Below, in pieces: positions 6,112-41,875 of a DNA stretch of 64,000 bases. Location: NCBI GenBank assembly GCA_000004695.1, contig CM000153.2, positions 3,360,001 to 3,424,000 of the forward strand. Reading direction: 5' to 3'. Within the stretch, counting starts at the first letter, position 1, and the number at the start of each line of letters is the position of its first letter. This stretch comes from Dictyostelium discoideum (Eukaryota). Under the pieces are notes generated by a model. That model searched no databases and was not told where the DNA came from. It saw nothing but the letters and a program-made list of their open reading frames with translations. The position numbers were made by a program, and so were the translations under genes.

Positions 6112-6190
6112 TTTGAATTGGATAACGCAATTATTAGTTGCTTCTCCTTGAGATGCTAGATCTCATTTTATTTGTACTTTTTATAAATCG
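6112..6190 (+). repeat. Direct repeat copy A' (partner of 5686..5760)
   Basis: See copy A. Lies about 35 bp upstream of the tRNA-Tyr. Confidence 0.7.
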
Positions 6191-6226
6191 AAGGTTAACT
6201 GATAAAAAAAATAAAATTTCATCAAA

Positions 6227-6309
6227 CCGGCTTTGGCGCAATGGTAGCGCGATTGACTGTAGTAAATTAAGTGATCAATCGGTTGCTAGTTCGAATCTGG
6301 CAAGCCGGA
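6227..6309 (+). tRNA. tRNA-Tyr (anticodon GUA) with an 11-nt intron (about 6263..6273)
   Basis: Acceptor stem ccggctt/aagccgg. D arm gcgc-aatggta-gcgc. Anticodon stem attga/tcaat with loop ct-GTA-g plus intron. T arm gctag-TTCGAAT-ctggc. Discriminator A followed by a T5 Pol III terminator. Eukaryotic tRNA-Tyr genes characteristically carry an intron. Confidence 0.85.
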
Positions 6310-6346
6310 CTTTTTCCAACCACCAATTATAAGACGCATGTTCGAC

Positions 6347-6363: not shown

Positions 6364-7468
6364 ATTAAAGCTCATCAATAATAATTGATTAAATAATTAT
6401 TAAAGCTCATCAATAATAACATAACACAGGCAAAGGGATAACAAGAAAAATGCCAGAATTATTAAACACAATAAGATCATCCTTAGTACTATGGAAAACC
6501 ACTGACTCAACAATCAAAACCAAAACCAACATCCTCAAAGCATTCGCACTCTCTAAATTAACCTACTATTCATATGTAGAGAACTTTAAGGAAGAGGAAT
6601 TAAACCAAATCAATAAATTAGTCGAATGGTTTTTATCGGCACCAAACAACAAAAATGCTAGTGGATTTCAAGTTATTAATTTAATGAGAACCAAAAGAGC
6701 AAGATACCCACTAAAAGTAGGGGGCTGGAACATTTGGAATATAGAATTGAGACAACTGGCGCAGAAACTTTGGATCATAAACCAGTTCATCCTAGCACTA
6801 GAAACCAAACAAACAAACTCATCTCATCACAAAAGCTGGGAATATCAGATCCAAAAAAACAAATTCACATCCAGATACCTAAAAGAAAACTTAGACGAAT
6901 GGAACAAAATAAGAATAAAAAAAGCAATCTTCAACAATAATCTCACATCCATAAAAAACGAAAATGGACAACCACTTTCACTGGCAGAATGGTATACCAC
7001 AATTCAAGACCAAAATCCAACCATCCCTAAAACGGAATTCCAATCATCTCTAAACTTAATTCATTGTACCACTGTGCAATCAAATATACAGTGAAGATCC
7101 TTTAACAAATGAATCACTATCATACAGCTCCCTTCTAAAGAAATGGCACAAATTGGCCACTCTAGAATACATCAAAAAAGCAAAAGATCTGAAAAACTTA
7201 TCAGCAAAAGACCATAATAATTTCAAAGATCCTAAGATCCTTCTCACCTCAACGATCAAGCTAAGAAAAACAACAGCTAATTACTATTGTATTCCAGAAT
7301 CATCTCTCCCAAATATTATATCTTTTGATCAATTCATATGATTAAAATAACCCTTCAGCTTAAATGATAAGCCTATAAATAAATATTAAATAAAAACTCG
7401 TATTAACACAGATGGACATATATCAATCTTGTTAATCCAATATTAAAAAAAAAAAAAAAAAAAAAAAA
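6364..7468 (+). mobile_element. 5'-truncated non-LTR (TRE3-like, tRNA-gene-targeted) retrotransposon 3' fragment with poly(A) tail
   Basis: Region is GC-richer than its surroundings. A 214-aa ORF (6450..7094) has no cellular homolog pattern. Terminal A26 run at 7443-7468. Sits 55-1150 bp downstream of a tRNA in the same orientation, the known TRE3 integration site. Confidence 0.55.
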
Positions 7469-7615
7469 ACTTTTTAAAATCCATATATAAACCTTTCGGC
7501 TAAATAAAAAAAGAATCAGTGAGTGTTATGGAAAAGAATAAGAAAAAATATGAAAAAAATATGAAAAAACTCAAAAAAAAAATTTTTTTTTTTTTTTTTT
7601 CAATTTTTTAATTTA

Positions 7616-28025: not shown

Positions 28026-28740
28026 ATGAATTCAATTGAAAATAATAATAAAATTTGGTTAATCACCGGAACATCAAGTGGTATAGGTTTAGAATTTGTA
28101 AAGAAATTATTTGAAATATGGTTATAAATTATCAGCATTAACTAGTAAACCAGAAGAGATTATAAAAGAGATTAAATTTGAAAAAGATAATTTATTAATT
28201 GTTAAAACTGATATTACAAACAATGAATTAGTAAAGAATGCAGTGACTAATAAACAATTTGGTAGAATTGATGTATTGGTTAATAATGCTGGTTATGGTT
28301 TAGTTGGTGCAATTGAAGAATTATCAGATTCAGAGGTTAGAAAGATATACGATGTAAATGTATTTGGCGTTTTAAATTTATTAAGAAATTCAACACCATA
28401 TTTTAGAAAACAAAAATCAGGTTTAATAATTAACATTTCCTCTCAAATGGGTTGGGATAGTATGCGAAATTATTCAGCCTACAGTTCAACTAAACATGCA
28501 GTTAATGCAATTACATTATCAGCACAAAAAGAGTTTAAACCATTTGGTGTAAATGTAATTTTGATATTTTTAATAAATATGCTTTCACCCGTTTCGCTCA
28601 AGAGTTTGATCTCTATTTTGGTCTTGCTTTATTCACTGGTTTAACTGCTTTAGATACTCACAATGTAAACCAGATTTCATTAGAGTTCCAATTGATCTAT
28701 TTTTAGATATTTTAAATATCTCCGTTAGACTTTTAAGAGC
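28026..28740 (+). pseudogene. Chimeric pseudogene: short-chain dehydrogenase/reductase (SDR) 5' two-thirds with a +1 frameshift near 28110, fused at about 28580 to a copy of the last about 55 codons of the TMBIM gene (53814..54983)
   Basis: TGTSSGIGLEFVKKLFE Rossmann motif then a frame break. NNAGYG...S...YSSTKHAV SDR catalytic pattern. From about 28580 the sequence is the inverted duplicate of 53817-53990 with an internal deletion. Confidence 0.6.
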
Positions 28741-30370
28741 TGGAAGTTAGTAAACAAAAAAAAAAAAAAAAAAAAAATATAAAAAAAGATAAAAAAAAAA
28801 AAAAAAGAAAAAAAAAAAGAAATAAAAAATGTGGTATTAAAATTTGTAAATAAATAAATAAAGCTGTAATTAAATTTAATCAAATAAAAAATTTTATGGA
28901 AGAATTTTTTAGAAAACAAAAAAAAAAAAAAAAAAAAAAAAATTATTTGAAAATCTAGCAAACGATCGAACGTAAAAAATAATTGGATATTATTTTATGA
29001 AAATTAGAAATCTATTTTAAAAAGTTTAATTTAAATAATGTTTTGGATTGGTTTTATTAAAAAAATTATTTTTTATATGCAAAAGTTATTTTTTAATTTT
29101 TTTTTTTTTTTTTATCAAAATGATTATTTTAAAAAGTTTTGTTTTTTTTTTTTTCTTTTTTTAAAATTTAAAGAAATTATCATGTGATTATTTTAAAATC
29201 CAAACGAAATAAAAGAAATTTATTTTTTAAAAATATCTTTTTCACCAAAAAAAAAAAAAAAAAACCATCGTTTGTGTAAAAAAAAAAATACATTTCGATA
29301 AAATTCAAAATCAGAAAAAAAGTTACTTTTTTAACAAAAAATGACAGAAAAATATAAGGTAAACTTTTTTTATATTTTATTTTTATTTTATTTTTTAAAT
29401 TATAATTTCAATGTTGTAATTTTCCGACATCATTTTCTCAAATTAATTCAACAAATGGGTTTTTAATATCAGAAGGCAGAAGTTTAATTTCAATTGAACA
29501 TGGAGACTTGAATGGTGATGGTAATGATGATTTGATATATTCTATAAATTCAGAAGGACTATATGTATTTTATGGGCCATTGGCAAGTAATTTTGATTTT
29601 CAACATTAAATGGAGTAATGGTTTTTTAATTAATAATTTCAATCCATTTTCTGCTTATCTTTATGATATGAATAATGATGGGATTGGTGATATAATGATA
29701 AATAGGGGACATATAGCAATCGATATTATTTATGGTAGTAGAGGTCCTTTTACCTCACCATATATCCCAGTTTATGATGGTGTCAAAAGTACCAGTTTCA
29801 GCTTTTTAGGTTGCTCAATAGATACTAATACTCTTCCAAATGCTTTTGGAGATTTTAATAATGATGGACTTAATGATTTTGGTGTAATTTATTCTTTATT
29901 ATTTTTGATTATTCTTATTCTTTATTATTCTTTATTGTTATTATACTAATTTTTACATTTTATTAAAAAATTTTAGATTCTTACAAGACTGACTTCGGGT
30001 GACCAAATAGCTTTTTTGGTTTGGGGTAAAACAGAATATCCACCAACAACAACATTAAGTATAAATCTAAATCCATCGGATGGTTTGGTTATAACAGTTG
30101 TTGGCAACACCTATAACTGGGCTTTATCTCCTAGATTGGGGATATAAATAATGATGGATTTGCAGATTTTTTAATCAGTGGTAACACTGACCTCCCATTC
30201 ACCATTTTGTATGGTAATAATAAAAATTATGCTTCAAATCCAATTTATTTAAAAGATCAAGTTGGTGATTGTTCAATAATGTCAATTAATGGCTATGTTG
30301 AGGCTATTGATATTGGTGATTATAACTCTGATGGTATTCATGATATTGTAATTAATATTATATTAAATCA

Positions 30371-30446
<76 letters not shown>

Positions 30447-31885
30447 TTTAAATAATTCTATTCTATCAGACAGCATATATAATAGCAACAGGTTCATATT
30501 TAGATATTTATACACTATATGGTCAAACTTCAATTGGTTCAATTTCAATAATTGGTAAATTATTTCTACCAAATCCAGTGTCAAACACAATTTATAAATT
30601 ATTTGAAAATAATATTAATTCAGAAGTTGGACAATGCGCAATTAGAATTGTTACATTAACAATTGAAAATTCAGCAAATGAAGATCAATTTATTATTGAT
30701 CCTAGTTTCAATAGTTCAATATATTCAATAGCATTTAATAATAATACAAGAGTTAGAATTGAGTTAATATTATTTGGTGATGAGAGTAAATCAATTGCAA
30801 ATGATGTTTTACCAAAAATAACAGTTTCATTATCACCTCAACTATTTAATAGAACTGTATTAATGAAATATGGTAATCAAGTACAATCAATTAATGCCCA
30901 AATGCAAATTGTGACACAAAATGTTTAAATAGTGGTACTTGTAATCCACTCACTGGTTGCCAATGTATAAATGATCATTATGGTGATTTTTGTGAATTAA
31001 AAGATTGTACAGTTCCACAATGTTTAAATGGTGGTTCATATAATACAACAGTTGATGAATGTTCATGTCCTCAAGGTTATGAAGGTACGGATTGCAGTGG
31101 TATTAGTTGTTCAGCTTCATGTTTAAATGGTGGCTCATGTAATACTACGGTTGGTGAATGTTCATGTCCTCAAGGTTATGAAGGTATGGATTGCAGTGGT
31201 ATTAGTTGTCCAGTTTCATGTTTAAATGGTGGTTCATGTAATACTATGGTTGGTGACTGTTCATGTATAAATGGCTTTTATGGTGATGATTGTGATACAA
31301 AGGATTGTACAGTTCCACAATGTTTAAATGGTGGTTCATGTAATACAACAGTTGGCGAATGTTCATGCACTCAAGGTTATGAAGGTATAGATTGTAGTGG
31401 TATTAGTTGTTCAGTTTCATGTTTAAATGGTGGTTTATGTAATACTACAGTTGGTCAATGTCAATGTGTTGAAGATTATGAAGGCGATGGTTGTGGTTCT
31501 GAAAACAAAAAGAAAATAAATATTGGTGTTATTATTGGTCGAATTTTAGATGGTCTTGCACTAATTGCAATTATTGTTGTTGCCATTGTTTTAATTAAAA
31601 AGAAGAAGAATGGAAATTCAAAGAAAAATACAAATAACATTGAATTAAGACCTCAAAGTTCCACTGTTGATATTCAAATGGGTGGTAGAATTAAAAATCT
31701 TGATAAATTTTAAATTTAAAAAGAGATTATTTTAAATCAATTATGTTGTATTATTATTATTTTTTAACAAAAAAAATAAAAAAAAAAAAAAAAAATTTTG
31801 ATCAAAATGATTATAATAAAAAAAAATACAAACCGCAGGGGTTATTTTTAAAAATAATTTGAAACAATTCAGTGATTTCAAAATA
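28560..31885. repeat. Left arm of a large inverted segmental duplication (partner 49765..54005)
   Basis: Reverse-complement identity of TMBIM 3' end plus flank, whole FG-GAP/EGF gene and about 170 bp of its 3' flank. The left arm carries deletions and frameshifts. Confidence 0.8.
29340..31713 (+). pseudogene. Degenerate copy of the FG-GAP/EGF-repeat membrane protein gene (intact copy 49926..53089)
   Basis: Same exon order and sequences. Missing about two FG-GAP repeats. Frameshift near 30130. Mutated donor near 30350. Truncated EGF array. Broken into four short ORFs. Confidence 0.7.
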
Positions 31886-32106
31886 AATAAAAATAATTAG
31901 CATCATTATCATCATTAAGCACTAGTTCTTTGAAATAAAGTGTTTCTTCAATTGAAACTGGTAGTTCAAGTGGTTCATTTGGTTCAAATGAAACATCGGG
32001 ATGGGGTTACCATCATTGAATAGTTGTCATCCATGTCCACCACCACGTCCAATTTGTCGTCCATGTCCACCACCACCATGTCGTCCAGTACCAAGATGTC
32101 ATCATT
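31881..32106 (+). pseudogene. HssA-like family copy 1 (second-exon fragment with in-frame stops), at the inner edge of the inverted repeat
   Basis: Homologous to 32571..32779 and 33569..33774 but with TAA/TGA in frame and no recognisable first exon. Confidence 0.4.
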
Positions 32107-32570
32107 AAAGTTTAAAATTAATAAATAGATCTTTAATATGTTTGGAATTTAAATAAATAATTTTTCTTTTTAAAAAATATATTCAAACACATTGAATTTG
32201 ATTTTAGAAAATTTACTACCAATAAAACTAATGATAATAAAATTCTTTTATTAACAAAATTTATTATTAAACAGAAATATAGAATGTATTAGTGATGCTC
32301 AAAAAACTGATGATTTAAAATATGTTAGAGAATGGGTTTATTCCTTTGTGAATCAATGTCCAATACATAATCCAACAGTTTTTTTTTTTTTTTTTTTTTT
32401 TTTAATCCTAGTCCTAATTTGGGATGTGCCATTGTGACCACTAAATCCATTTTCAATTTATTTCAACAAAGTTTGCAGGGTAAATTAAAAAATATAATAT
32501 TTAAAAAAAATAAAATTGCATAGGAAATTTATTTTTAATGAAATTTTTTTATTTTTATTAAAAATCTATT

Positions 32571-32862
32571 TTAATATTTATAATGGCATCTTGGTTCTGG
32601 ACGGCATGGTGGACATGGACGACAAATTGGACGTGGTGGTGGACATGGATGACAACTATTCCAATGGTGGTAACCCCATCCCGATGTTTCATTTGAACCA
32701 AATGAACCACTTGAACTACCAGTTTCAATTGATGAAACACTTGATTTCAAAGAACCAGTGCTTAATGATGATAATGATGCTAATTTTTATAAATTATTTA
32801 TTAATAAAAAAATAAATTTAAATTTTTTTTTTTTAGGAAAAAAACTTACAAAATAGGGTCAT
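32571..32862 (-). CDS. HssA/2C/7E-like small Cys/Pro-rich protein (73 aa), exons 32862..32850 and 32779..32571
   Basis: 13-nt first exon ATGACCCTATTTT plus GTAAGT. Product [73 protein letters not shown]. Confidence 0.6.
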
Positions 32863-33186
32863 TTTAAAATTTTAATAGTTTCTTGTTTAAAAATTAGAGT
32901 TTGATTTAATATTTTTTTTTTCTAATTTGGTTACAATTTATAGTTTTTTTTTTCTGAAAAAAAGAATAAAAAAACAAATAATTTTTTAATTTTATTTTTA
33001 AAATCATACTTTTTGTTTTTTCATTTCTATTTTTTTTTATATCAAAAAACTTAAACTCCCCCCCATTATATTTTTCTATTTGACTTGTTATATTATTTAT
33101 TCATAAATGATTACTTGTTATATTAATTATTATTATAAATGGGGCCTTTGGATTTTGAAATATCAAGAATTCTTAAAATAAAAAAG

Positions 33187-33229
<43 letters not shown>

Positions 33230-33303
33230 ATTCATAAAATTAAAAAACTATAAAAACAAAAAATCAATTTTTAAAATATTAATTATAAATCAAAAAAAAA
33301 AGC

Positions 33304-33774
33304 ATGAGTATTTTCAGTAAGTATAATTTTTTTAGAAATATTGTAAAACTCAGTAAAATTTGTCATAAATATTTTTAAAAATAATAATAAATAATTAATT
33401 ATAATTATTCCTACAAAATAAATGTTTTAATAATTAAACCACTTTGTTGATCCCCCTAACATGGTGAATTTCTTAATTTCGAAATTTTTGCTCAAATTTT
33501 CCTGTATTTTACAATATTTAAATAAATAAAATAAACTAAATTTAAACCCTTTTTTTAAATAAATATAGGTTCATTATCATCATTATCCACTGGTTCTTTG
33601 AAATCAAGTGTTTCTTCAATTGAAAACGGTAGCTCAAGTGGTTCATTTGGTTCAAATGAAACATCTGGATGGGGTCAACACCACTGGAATAGTTGTCATC
33701 CATGTCCACCACCACGTCCAATTTGTCGTCCATGTCCACCATGCCGTCCTGAACCAAGATGTCATCGTTATTAA
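33304..33774 (+). CDS. HssA/2C/7E-like small Cys/Pro-rich protein, exons 33304..33316 and 33569..33774
   Basis: 13-nt first exon ATGAGTATTTTCA plus GTAAGT, about 250-nt intron. Product [18 protein letters not shown]...[26 protein letters not shown]. Confidence 0.55.
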
Positions 33775-33940
33775 ATTTAATAAAGTTTTAAAAATAAATT
33801 TAACCTTTAAAAAAAAAAAGGTATTTTTAGAAAATTGGAAAAGTAGTATTAAAAATTTTTATTGTGTTTGTTAGAGAAAAAAAAATAGTATAAAATACTA
33901 ATAACCAAACAAAAAACAAATGTTTTTAAATATATTTAAA

Positions 33941-34706
33941 TTATTTTGAATTAAAGTCATAGTAAGAAACTTCACCATCAGAAAAACCAGCTAACATTGT
34001 TTCATCATCTATTGATAAACATTCTACGGGTGATAAATTATTAATGGTAGTTAAAAGGTTTGGTTCATTACTACCCTCTAAATTCCATAAACAAATTGAA
34101 TCTTCATCCCTTGTACACATACGTAAATTATTATAGATACTTATTGCTTTAACCTTTGAGGAATGAGATTTTATATTGTGGATGGCAGAACTTGGATTTC
34201 TGATATCCCACATTCTAATGGTCTTATCGCTTGAACCTGTAATCAATTGATAATCATTTAAAAAGTTGAGACAATTAACTGAACCTTTGTGACCATTGAG
34301 AACCAATTCAGTTTTATTTGAGTCTATATCCCATAGCTTAACAGTTTTATAAGTACATGCAATCATACAAAAGTTTTCAAACCTTCCAATTAAAATGATT
34401 AATTTTGGTGTTTTCAATTTCTATCATTTGCAATTCCTGTTCAGTTTCGCTATCATATAGCTTTACGGTATTACTTTCATAAGAGTAAATATCTCTTTTC
34501 ATGAAAATGAAACCATTAGAAACGTAGAGAAAACGTTGTTCTTTTTCAATTTCTTTGTAGCGATATTGTAATGTTGAATTGCACGATTTGAACAACCCAA
34601 TCTAATGATACCATGCATAAATAAACAATATGAGAATATCTGTTGAAAGTTTAGTAAAATTATCCGTTTCAAATGAAATAACTGAACTTGCACCACATCT
34701 AGTTTA
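33941..34706 (-). pseudogene. Truncated/frameshifted WD40-repeat gene fragment
   Basis: C-terminal WD repeats (GHKGSVNCL...ITGSSDKTIRMWDI...) are intact in one frame. The upstream part is spread over three frames and ends abruptly at a poly(G) tract. Confidence 0.5.
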
Positions 34707-34722
34707 TGGGGGGGGGGGGGGG
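34705..34722. repeat. G18 homopolymer at the junction of the WD40 fragment and a 60-bp repeated element
   Basis: The same 60-bp element at 33135..33200 has only GGGG. Very atypical for this AT-rich genome. Confidence 0.7.
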
Positions 34723-34847
34723 GGGCCTTTGGATTTTGAATTATCAAGAATTCTTAAAATAAAAAAGTCTTAAAAAAAAAAAAAAAAAAATAAAAAAAAA
34801 ATTTAAATAAATAAATAAAAAAAAAAATTAAAATGAATTCAATTGAA

Positions 34848-35356
34848 AATAAAAATAATAAAATTTGGTTAACCACTGGAACATCAGGTGGTAGAAATCA
34901 AAAATCAGGTTTAATAATTAACATTTCCTCCCAAATGGGTTGGGATAATACGCAAAATTTTTCAGCCTACAGTTCAACATAACACGTAGTTAATGCAATT
35001 ACATTATCAGCACAAAAAGAGTTAAACCATTTGGTGTAAATGTAATTTTAGTTAGTCCAGGTTGATTTAAAACTAGTTTCGTAGCTGGTCAACAATCAAA
35101 CTTTCAAGTACCTTCTAAATTAATTGATGAATATTCAACTCAATCATTCATTGATATGTTTAATAAATATTCAACATATTCAAAAGGTCATCCTGAAAAA
35201 GCAGCTGAACTCTTAATTAAATTACCAACAATCGAACAATTACCAAATAATTTATTCATTGGTTCTGGTTCATTATCAGCTGGTAAACAACAATTACAAT
35301 CACATTTATTAGAACCTGAAAAATGGTCTGAAATTTCAATTTCAGCTGGTTATTAA
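34848..35356 (+). pseudogene. Second partial SDR copy (internal deletion, stop and frameshifts; only the last 66 codons, 35156..35356, are open)
   Basis: MNSIENKNNKIWLTTGTSGG then deletion to ...SGLIINISSQMGWDN. Stop in STKHAVNA region. The 3' part carries the C-terminus missing from the copy at 28026. Confidence 0.6.
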
Positions 35357-35493
35357 AAATAAAAATCAAATAAAAATAAATAAACTTTTTTTTTTATTTT
35401 TTTATTTTTTTTTTGTAAATAAATAAAAAATAAAATAATAAATTTGGGAAATTCAAAATTTCGTTCGTTTTTCTTTTTCTATTTTTATTATTT

Positions 35494-35636: not shown

Positions 35637-36818
35637 ATGTATGAGACAGAAGAAGACCCAACTACATCAAATGTAGCAACAACAAATAATGAAAAAACAG
35701 CATCAACAGCAGCAACAACAACAGAACCAGTTAAAAAAGTAACAGAATTTATGAGAGTTCAAAGATTATTTAGACAAGTTACAAAATCAGCAAATGGAAA
35801 GAATATACCTAAAGAAAAAAGAGAACCAATTGATTATTCACCAGTTTTAGATTTTCATAATTTAGAGAATAATACAGAAGAGAATAAAAAGTTAATAATT
35901 GATTGTACATCAAATGTAACGACCCATGATTTTGAATTCAATAGGGATACAGAGTTTTATTTACATCCAAGAGAATGGAAAGTTTATGGGTTACAAGGTT
36001 ATCCAGGATTTTATTTCATTAAATCACCATTTACAGCATCACAACAAAAGAAATGGATTAAACATGCATTAGAAGATTATGCAGATCCACCAAATAATAA
36101 CAATATCACCTTATTCCATGGTCCAATAAAGAATCTTTGGAAAAATGGTGAAAAAGAATTAATCAATGAAGAATTAAAGAGTCAAGGTAAACATGATGAT
36201 GATGAAATTGAACAACCAACAAGACCATTAGATAAAAATGGTGAACCATTACCAACCTATCGTCAACTTTTAGATAAATTAGCTTGGTCAACATTGGGTT
36301 ACCAATATCAATGGACACCAAGATTATATAGTGAGGAATTCTATGAGGAATTCCCTGACGATCTTCAAGAATTGGTTCAAAAGATTGCAATTGCAACTAA
36401 ATTCGATCCATATGTTGCAGAGGCCGCAACCGTTAATTTCTACTCTGAAGATTCAATTATGGGTGGTCATTTAGATGATGCCGAACAAGAAATGGAGAAA
36501 CCAATCATTTCAATTAGTTTCGGTAGTACTGCCGTATTTTTAATGGGTGCTGAAACTAGAGATATCGCTCCAGTTCCTCTATTCATTCGTAGTGGTGATA
36601 TAGTGATTATGGGTGGTAGATCAAGATATTGTTATCATGGTGTGGCTAAAATTGTTGAAAATTCTTTTGATCTTGGTTTAATCGATGAAAATGATGATCA
36701 AGATTTAAAATATAAAATTCAATGGTTAAAAGAAAAAAATAGAAGAGTTAATATAAATACAAGACAAGTTTTTAAAGTTCCAAAATTAGGTGGTAAATTA
36801 ATTAATAAAAATGAATAA
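35637..36818 (+). CDS. AlkB homolog 1 (ALKBH1)-like Fe(II)/2-oxoglutarate dioxygenase
   Basis: [67 protein letters not shown] and RVNINTRQV match the ALKBH1 signature blocks. Confidence 0.75.
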
Positions 36819-40051: not shown

Positions 40052-41875
40052 AAACTTACTTTAATAATAAATTTGGTAATGAATTAAATAAAATTGAATA
40101 ATCATCAGCAATTATTAATTCTTGAATTTGATGATAAGGATTTTCAGATTGATTTTTAATTTCAATTTGAGAGGTATTATTTTTTAAAATTTCCAAGATA
40201 TCTTTTGGTGTATTAATTTGAGAGATACAAGTTGAAGGTGGTGAATCGATATCTTCTTCAATGGATAGAGGTGATCTGTAAGGTTTTAATTCACGATATA
40301 AAGATTCATCGTAGAGTACACGAAGATAACACCAAAAGTAGTCATACCAATTCTTTTGAATTGGTAGAGTTGCCTCTAAATTACCACATAACAGACCATA
40401 GATTGCACGTTCATATTGATCATTTGAATTCTTTGAGATGTTTAAACAATTGGATTTCCAGAGGTTGAAATAAGGATTACCAATACTATGCTCACCTTGA
40501 TAATAGTTCAACCCAATCAAAGTTTGTGCTCTCCAAAATTGGCCTACATTTGTGCAATATTCAGCAGCACCCACTCTATCACCAGCTCTAAGGAAACTCC
40601 AAACGGTTTTCAAGAATCTCGATTGATTCTTTTCATCATCTTTATCGATTGGTTTATTTTGACGCGACATTGCATCTGGGTCCAACTCTGACACCATTTG
40701 ATTATTGGTTAGCATTGTGATGGAATTGGATTTCTTTAATTTGATTAATGTGTACTCCCAAAATACTGCATCATTATCATTGAGTTCAACTTGTGATGAC
40801 ATCTCTTCTAACCATTCTAAAAGTATTAAATTCTCACGTAATTTATGATCTTTTTTAATTAAATAATTGTAAACTTGAACTTGATTAGGTTGAGAGATAT
40901 CAATCTTTTCCTTTTGATCAATACTTCTTTGTATATCCCTATACTCATAAAGTTTCTTTAAAATTGACCATGTATCTTTCTCCATTTGATAATTCTTTAA
41001 TTGTTGTTCTTTTTGTTTTCTATTATTTTGCATGTAAAATAATTTATTACTTTCATCATCATTTATTGAATTAATTCTATATATATATATATTTAAAATA
41101 GAGATATATTAGTTTTTTTTTTTTTTTTATATCTATCTATCTTCCTATATATTTATCTGTCTAACCCTCTTTCTTTCTCTCTCTCTATATATATATATAT
41201 ATAATGTAACTTACTTTGCTTGAGATAATTTTAAAAATGTATCAGATAATTCTATTGGTATTAAATGAGGATCATCATTTAATTTTGGTTGTAATTCATA
41301 TTCTAATGTATTATGATAAATGGTATCATCAGTTCTACTCTTATCATTAAATATATTATTGAATTGATTTTCATCTTCTTCCATTTCCATTTGATTATTT
41401 TGTAATTGTTGATTATCCATTTCAAACTCTTGTTCATTATTATTATTATCATTATCATTATTAACTTCCATATTATTATTGTTATTATTAATAGTATTAC
41501 CAAACAATGAATTACCAAATTGATTATTATTATTATTATTATTATTAAAATTAATTTGTGTATTTCCAAATATTCCTCCATCTCCTTTAACCAATGTATT
41601 ATTATTATTCATATTATTATTATTATTTACAATACCACTAAATTCATCTTCATTGTTATCATCTGGTAAAATACCTATAAATAAATAAAAAAAAAAAAAA
41701 AGTTTATTTTAAATTAGTTTTAGAGTAAAGGGGGAAATTATTATTATTATATATGCCTTGAAAACTTACTAAAGTCGAATTTATTATTATTATTAAATGG
41801 TTGTGTACTAAAAAAGTCATCATTATTGTTACTATTTAGGTTATTACCTAAATTCCATTTAAAATTTTCTGACAT
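38560..41875 (-). CDS. nup107: Nucleoporin Nup107/Nup84 family, 4 exons: 41875..41770, 41674..41215, 41076..40060, 39934..38560
   Basis: Exon 3 has the Nup107 signature DPDA..R...LRAGDRVGAAEYCTNVGQFWRAQTLIG...GNPYFNLWKSNCLN...YERAIYGLLCGNLEATLP. GTAAGT donors with consistent phases. Introns contain (TA)n/(CT)n and (AAAT)n microsatellites. Confidence 0.8.

Follow-up and report, generated by a model that had tools for sequence, protein, structure and literature searches.

How did an uninterrupted run of 18 guanines arise in nuclear DNA of Dictyostelium discoideum in which G makes up 11% of bases and the GC content is ~22%? The run lies at positions 34708-34725 (+) of the window, by which we mean the whole stretch of 64,000 nucleotides (64 kb) that was analysed, part of chromosome 4 of strain AX4, and it is the longest G/C run there. 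The runner-up is a single C7, and the other runs of five or more comprise one C6, five G5 and three C5. At 11% G such a run is not expected by chance, and the first-pass annotation was right to single it out as extreme for this genome. That annotation placed the run within a duplicated 60-bp element at the point where a WD40 gene fragment is truncated, and offered either replication slippage at a breakpoint or a sequencing or assembly artefact as its origin.

Results

The G-run in two assemblies

The tract is real. A G17 run with identical flanks occupies the matching site in an independent de novo, chromosome-scale assembly of the same laboratory lineage (GCA_054883475.1, here L001), reached by look-up of the alkB gene (35637-36818), itself an exact match to XP_638135 of strain AX4. 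L001 is probably the Nanopore plus Illumina assembly of AX2-214 by Holland et al. 2025 (PMC12745789), a mapping of accession to strain that we infer. Across 21 kb (window 25617-46834) one substitution and eight indels separate the two assemblies, and as seven of the eight are pure homopolymer-length differences of up to 6 nt, platform error is inseparable from real variation in the comparison of G18 with G17, and the one-G difference falls inside homopolymer error. The eighth indel removes 15 nt (A14 plus T). L001 is the shorter sequence at all eight, reflecting either systematic platform bias or real tract instability. AX2 and AX4 are separate derivations from NC4 and both carry the tract, which is therefore older than the laboratory sublines. 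Homopolymer lengths are error-prone and the two assemblies stand one G apart, but a sequencing, cloning or assembly artefact in the reference is exceedingly improbable given that the tract recurs at the same site, with identical flanks and three nearby private changes described below, in an independent long-read plus short-read assembly. Look-ups of two ORFs spanning or flanking the tract, for short-read contigs crossing the G-run, returned no record.

Dictyostelium telomere repeats have the form A-G(1-8). Telomere-type healing was considered and dropped, the tract being a single uninterrupted G18 with no A-interrupted repeats.

Origin of the flanking fragment

The sequence beside the G-run is part of a larger unit, present in several forms in the window:

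32571-33191, minus strand: DDB_G0285567, a 73-aa Cys/Pro-rich gene with the exon 1 ATG at 32860, plus its ~330-bp conserved 5′ flank
33141-33227, plus strand: copy in native context, consisting of GGGG, the element (A variant) and A36, at the distal end of the DDB_G0285567 5′ flank
33306-33774, plus strand: DDB_G0285569, divergently oriented paralogue of DDB_G0285567, with its ATG at 33306 and its 3′ end facing the WD40 pseudogene
34708-34725, plus strand: G18 homopolymer (G17 in the AX2-type assembly), derived from a native GGGG
34726-34771, plus strand: orphan fragment CCTTTGG...AGTCTT of a DDB_G0285567-type 5′ flank, equal to the L013 paralogue at both variable positions
34772-34801, plus strand: A19-T-A10 run behind the fragment, with the SDR upstream junction within or just past it

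The duplication noted in the first-pass annotation exists, since a 45-bp core, CCTTTGGATTTTGAAWTATCAAGAATTCTTAAAATAAAAAAGTCT, has exactly two occurrences in the window, at 33145-33189 after GGGG and at 34726-34770 after G18; no match of this type arose in 100 shuffles. The two element copies of the window differ at a single base, and each is followed by an A-run (A36 at 33192-33227; A19-T-A10 at 34772-34801). They do not constitute an independent element but the outer margin of a 5′ flank, ~330 bp long, that belongs to a dispersed small-gene family, and the G-run borders the fragment instead of interrupting it. The small Cys/Pro-rich genes form a family of 71-73-aa hypothetical proteins found on several chromosomes, with some members, on chromosomes 2, 4 and 5, known from AX4 alone. 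A paralogue on another contig (L013 7649-8437) aligns with window 33214-32425 at 95.5% identity and has an element that reads CCCC in gene orientation, along with a T-run of 24 nt. A block from a diverged strain, L015 8098-9418, aligns with window 31895-33190 at 85.7%; it contains two convergent small genes, a flank with a C7 run and the element, which reads GGGGCTTTGG...AGTCTTC with no A-run behind it.

Across these three copies the flank (window 32861-33191, L013 7673-8000, L015 9100-9418) is roughly 93-95% conserved, an estimate made from the alignment by inspection, and the homology ends sharply at AAGAC/AGTCTT. Other intergenic DNA between those strains is ~85-90% identical, below the conservation of the flank, which suggests either a functional promoter or gene conversion. 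The flank also contains the palindrome AAGAATTCTT. A Class-I-like non-coding RNA with an upstream C-rich box was considered for this sequence and rejected, with no Rfam match (E ≤10) and fold z-scores of +0.2 to +1.6, not better than shuffles.

GGGG stands at the position homologous to the G-run in the neighbouring copy (window 33141-33144), in L013 and in the diverged strain L015. Because these three other copies, one from a diverged strain, all carry GGGG, G4 is on this comparison the ancestral state and G17/18 the derived one, and the proposal of a homopolymer expansion is thereby confirmed. The C7/G6 run of the same unit varies in length by at most 1 among the three copies. Of the ~790-bp unit, the G18 site has just 74 nt, which match L013 7649-7722 at 98.6% identity and the copy 1.58 kb distant at ~97%. 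The paralogue on the other contig is thus the closest match, and the neighbouring copy is less close: the 49-bp fragment shows zero substitutions against L013 and agrees with it at both variable positions (the T variant, and AGTCTT followed directly by A's), at both of which the neighbouring copy differs. By alignment, then, the copy at 33141 is the ~330-bp flank in its native context, and what stands at the G18 site is an orphan piece of ~50 bp with an A-run.

The joint with the WD40 pseudogene

On its other side the G-run adjoins a truncated gene, close to which lie several changes private to this allele:

33941-34704, minus strand: 5′-truncated WD40-repeat pseudogene (WD40 Pfam families), with a frameshift near 34400
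34705-34707, plus strand: TAT at the junction, separating the limit of WD40 homology (34704) from the G-run
34666: A>C, 39 nt from the break
34640: 2-bp deletion, frame-breaking, 65 nt from the break
34633: C>T, 72 nt from the break
33750: A in the window, T in all three other haplotypes, 955 nt from the break

That the WD40 fragment is truncated at the G-run is borne out by two untruncated haplotypes from other sequencing samples, L011 (SRR28564541) and L016 (SRR28564542), which align with window 34704-33732 at ~99% and extend 302 bp further upstream in an open WD40-like frame, at which point both contigs end. The frameshift near 34400 is common to the truncated allele and both untruncated haplotypes, so the WD40 gene was already a pseudogene before its truncation. 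The break lies 3 nt from the G-run. As the native unit likewise has the 'AT' of TAT in front of GGGG, the unit-derived piece starts 2-3 nt ahead of the G-run, and microhomology at the WD40-side joint amounts to at most 2-3 ambiguous nt (TAT). The SDR-side joint falls in the A-run, where any A-rich target would match. No close WD40 paralogue was found among 5.8 billion proteins and no match to the N-terminal 101 aa of the untruncated allele among the annotated proteins of any assembly, the latter weakly favouring loss of the 5′ half over its relocation.

Compared with both untruncated haplotypes, the truncated allele has four private changes in 973 aligned nt, all of them reproduced in the AX2-type assembly and with a polarity that is certain for the 2-bp deletion only. 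Three of the four fall within 72 of the 973 nt, in a cluster at 34633-34666 next to the joint (binomial p ~0.0015, our own estimate, with n=4 and the cluster noticed post hoc). Such a pattern is what error-prone synthesis next to a repair joint would leave.

A third WD40/small-gene haplotype, L012 (SRR28564543), concentrates ~12 differences from window 33736-33821 in ~90 bp of the small gene's 3′ end and is nearly identical outside it, and this cluster looks like gene conversion from a paralogue.

The locus in other strains

The G18 copy sits between the truncated WD40 pseudogene and a short-chain dehydrogenase (SDR) pseudogene, within a larger rearrangement:

28563-34755, no strand assigned: patchwork insertion of ~6.2 kb, in the AX4/AX2 lineage only, that splits and partly duplicates an SDR gene
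34802-35360, plus strand: SDR (adh_short) pseudogene copy B, including ~30 bp upstream of its ATG (34834), with in-frame stops and 334 bp deleted internally at 34892/34893

Four diverged strains, two labelled D. discoideum (L007 and L008) and two cf. discoideum (L009 and L010), share ~88-92% identity with the window; each has an intact SDR gene of 279-287 aa immediately upstream of alkB, and alignment shows that they lack window 28563-34755. The comparison indicates that the insertion is derived and present only in the AX4/AX2 (NC4) lineage. It contains an inverted duplicate of an FG-GAP/EGF gene, three small-gene copies and the minus-strand WD40 pseudogene. SDR copy A ends at 28562 and is followed by ~19 bp of filler, gatatttttaataaatatg, beyond which window 28582-31877 is the inverted duplicate, at 80-91% identity, of the FG-GAP/EGF gene at 54019-49767, ~20 kb away. 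In the AX2-type annotation this duplicate is fused into an 829-aa chimeric gene model. As divergence among the pieces runs from 80% to 99%, the patchwork was built in several steps, of which the G18 joint looks to be the youngest.

The segment deleted from SDR copy B corresponds to L008 8936-9269, which has intron-like ends (it starts GTATAG and ends TTTTAG), and the deletion joint has a 2-bp microhomology. A role for the element as part of the native SDR promoter was ruled out, the element being missing upstream of SDR in L007, L008 and window copy A.

Discussion

Our results are best accommodated by a model in which the G18 arose by slippage coupled to a low-fidelity joining event, either break repair or template switching. 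We place the probability of this model at about 0.5, the coupling and the polymerase being its putative parts. Of the origins first proposed, replication slippage at a breakpoint is therefore the one best supported, by an ancestral G4, a break 3 nt away and private changes clustered at the joint. According to the model, the WD40 pseudogene and the broken SDR upstream region would have been joined, with a ~50-bp piece of orphan flank and its A-run between them, by low-fidelity DNA synthesis of the alternative end-joining (alt-EJ) or MMBIR kind. While copying the small-gene flank, a nascent strand would have stuttered at the C4/G4 run, extending it to ~18, then left its template within 2-3 nt and resumed on the WD40 pseudogene, where it may have made a few errors over the next ~70 nt. 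No signature of template switching beyond the patch itself was found. On these data a plain deletion taking out a fourth full small-gene unit, all but its tip, is indistinguishable from a templated insertion.

Against the coupling stands an orthologous intergenic G-run that lengthens among strains without rearrangement. At window ~41725-41735 (L007 15975-15985; L008 16037-16046) the run reads G5 in AX4 and AX2 and G11, G10, G3 and G3 across other strains, and ordinary slippage can therefore build such runs. Ordinary replication slippage at the G18 site, stepwise or in a jump, before or after the junction formed, would make the closeness of the break coincidental. It gains from this control site, and G17 versus G18 in two assemblies of one laboratory lineage is compatible with ongoing instability. 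Several features nonetheless make it unlikely. Despite ~10% lineage divergence the three sister copies keep exactly G4, and the length of the C7 run changes by no more than 1, which also speaks in favour of a single jump; the 49-bp fragment has accumulated no substitutions relative to L013; only ~3% of randomly placed breaks in the ~800-bp unit, by a rough estimate, would come within 3 nt of a G/C run of four or more; and the cluster of private changes at the junction is left unexplained.

The order of events may instead have been reversed, with expansion preceding the break. Here a fourth full unit would have stood beside SDR copy B, and a long G-run within it, through quadruplex formation or fork stalling, would have led to a break and a flanking deletion that took the rest of the fourth unit together with the WD40 5′ half. 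A breakpoint 3 nt from the tract is as expected, and the lack of any match for the WD40 5′ half among annotated proteins of any assembly fits deletion over translocation. Monoguanine tracts of ~18 or more are a source of flanking deletions in FANCJ-deficient C. elegans. In FANCJ cases, however, the tract is usually lost, whereas here it is whole, and a strain with the fourth unit was not found among the few loci examined. We regard this sequence of events as distinctly improbable.

A different origin, to which we give a comparably small chance, is RNA-mediated. In this scenario a polyadenylated plus-strand RNA ending in AGTCTT would have been reverse-transcribed and captured at a break or nick, with G18 the product of reverse transcriptase stutter or of untemplated C's. 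The G18 copy would then represent extreme 5′ truncation, and the longer copies (window 31850-33227 and L013) less truncated retrocopies. The three AX4/AX2-lineage copies do have one 3′ end, comprising AATAAA, ~10 nt, AGTCTT and an A-run of 36, 24 or 19+10, and nested 5′ extents of at least 1.38 kb, 789 bp and 49 bp. Homology with L015 stops at the same nucleotide, without an A-run, L015 continuing AGTCTTCTGATAAT. Sequences beyond the A-runs are non-homologous against a realistic null, an apparent L015/L013 homology past the A-run having beaten mononucleotide shuffles and lost against real AT-rich segments (637 of 1500 equalled or exceeded its score). Extra G's have also been documented at the 5′ junctions of TRE5-A (PMC3159450).

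Set against this scenario, convincing target-site duplications were not found: the flanks of L013 (...CGTTTTTTTTTT| and |TTTATGGCC) and of the G18 copy (...AGTTTAT| and |TTTAAATAAAT) have only trivial T/A matches. The longer copies keep the small-gene intron. D. discoideum is reported to be without processed pseudogenes, and TRE5-A depends on its own 3′ end to be mobilised (PMC3159450). The window copies have no neighbouring tRNA gene; a TRE-type position, ~50 bp upstream or ~100 bp downstream of a tRNA gene, is not seen, the sole tRNA gene of the window being at 6227-6310. Long A-runs are ubiquitous in the genome and are likely sites of recombination or template switching, and because they are so common, repeated breakpoints inside them are unsurprising. 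Finally, the private changes lie in the WD40 flank, outside what a reverse transcriptase would synthesise.

The tRNA gene at 6227-6310 was assigned by Rfam (57.8 bits); ARAGORN leaves its anticodon undetermined, and it may contain an intron. Nearby, tRNA-gene-like repeats relate window 6165-6315 to L013 8914-9063 and 13957-14083, and an RVT_1 gene lies at the end of L013. A 280-bp stretch (window 7195-7473 versus L013 11531-11810), 98.9% identical between the chromosome of the window and that other contig, is probably a fragment of a tRNA-targeted retrotransposon.

The locus offers a dated natural repair scar, combining a breakpoint, an orphan paralogous patch, a 14-nt expansion and a mutation cluster, in a model organism of DNA-repair genetics. 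The SDR gene is disrupted in the standard laboratory lineage and intact in four diverged strains. A monoguanine tract of 17-18 nt is very rare in a 22% GC genome and long enough for quadruplex folding, which would allow its use as a natural reporter for the stability of G-tracts, for example in FANCJ or Pol theta mutants. Understanding of Dictyostelium genome biology is unchanged unless the RNA-mediated reading is correct, in which case a polyadenylated cellular RNA, not of transposon origin, would have been retroposed or captured as cDNA at a break in a species whose genome is reported to have no processed pseudogenes (PMC3159450).

Comparison with known systems

Four known systems provide points of comparison. 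As in mononucleotide microsatellite slippage, a short pre-existing run (G4) has grown long and may differ by one nucleotide (17/18) between sublines; unlike it, the seed of G4 is far under the usual threshold, the sister copies are stable at G4, and the position of the run at a breakpoint suggests a one-off event. The poly-G deletion hotspots of C. elegans dog-1/FANCJ resemble the locus in having a monoguanine tract of ~18 nt with a deletion endpoint directly adjoining, but here the tract is retained and nothing indicates that it preceded the break. The 5′-truncated non-LTR retrocopies of the L1 type or of TRE5-A resemble the copies described here in their common 3′ end after AATAAA with an A-run, their nested series of 5′ truncations and the additional G's at the 5′ joint; they differ in that the present copies keep an intron, have no target-site duplications and show no tRNA-gene targeting.

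The remaining comparison is with templated ('filler') insertions at alt-EJ, MMBIR or FoSTeS junctions. Likenesses comprise a short patch of sequence found elsewhere, placed between two unrelated breakpoints, with minimal microhomology, base changes and a small indel within tens of nucleotides, and a patchwork locus of multiple pieces. The gain of ~14 nt of homopolymer at the edge of the patch is no standard feature of such junctions, and the pathway and polymerase in Dictyostelium are putative. The G18 locus is no new genetic element but a junction scar of a familiar general type, set in a graveyard of genes particular to this lineage.
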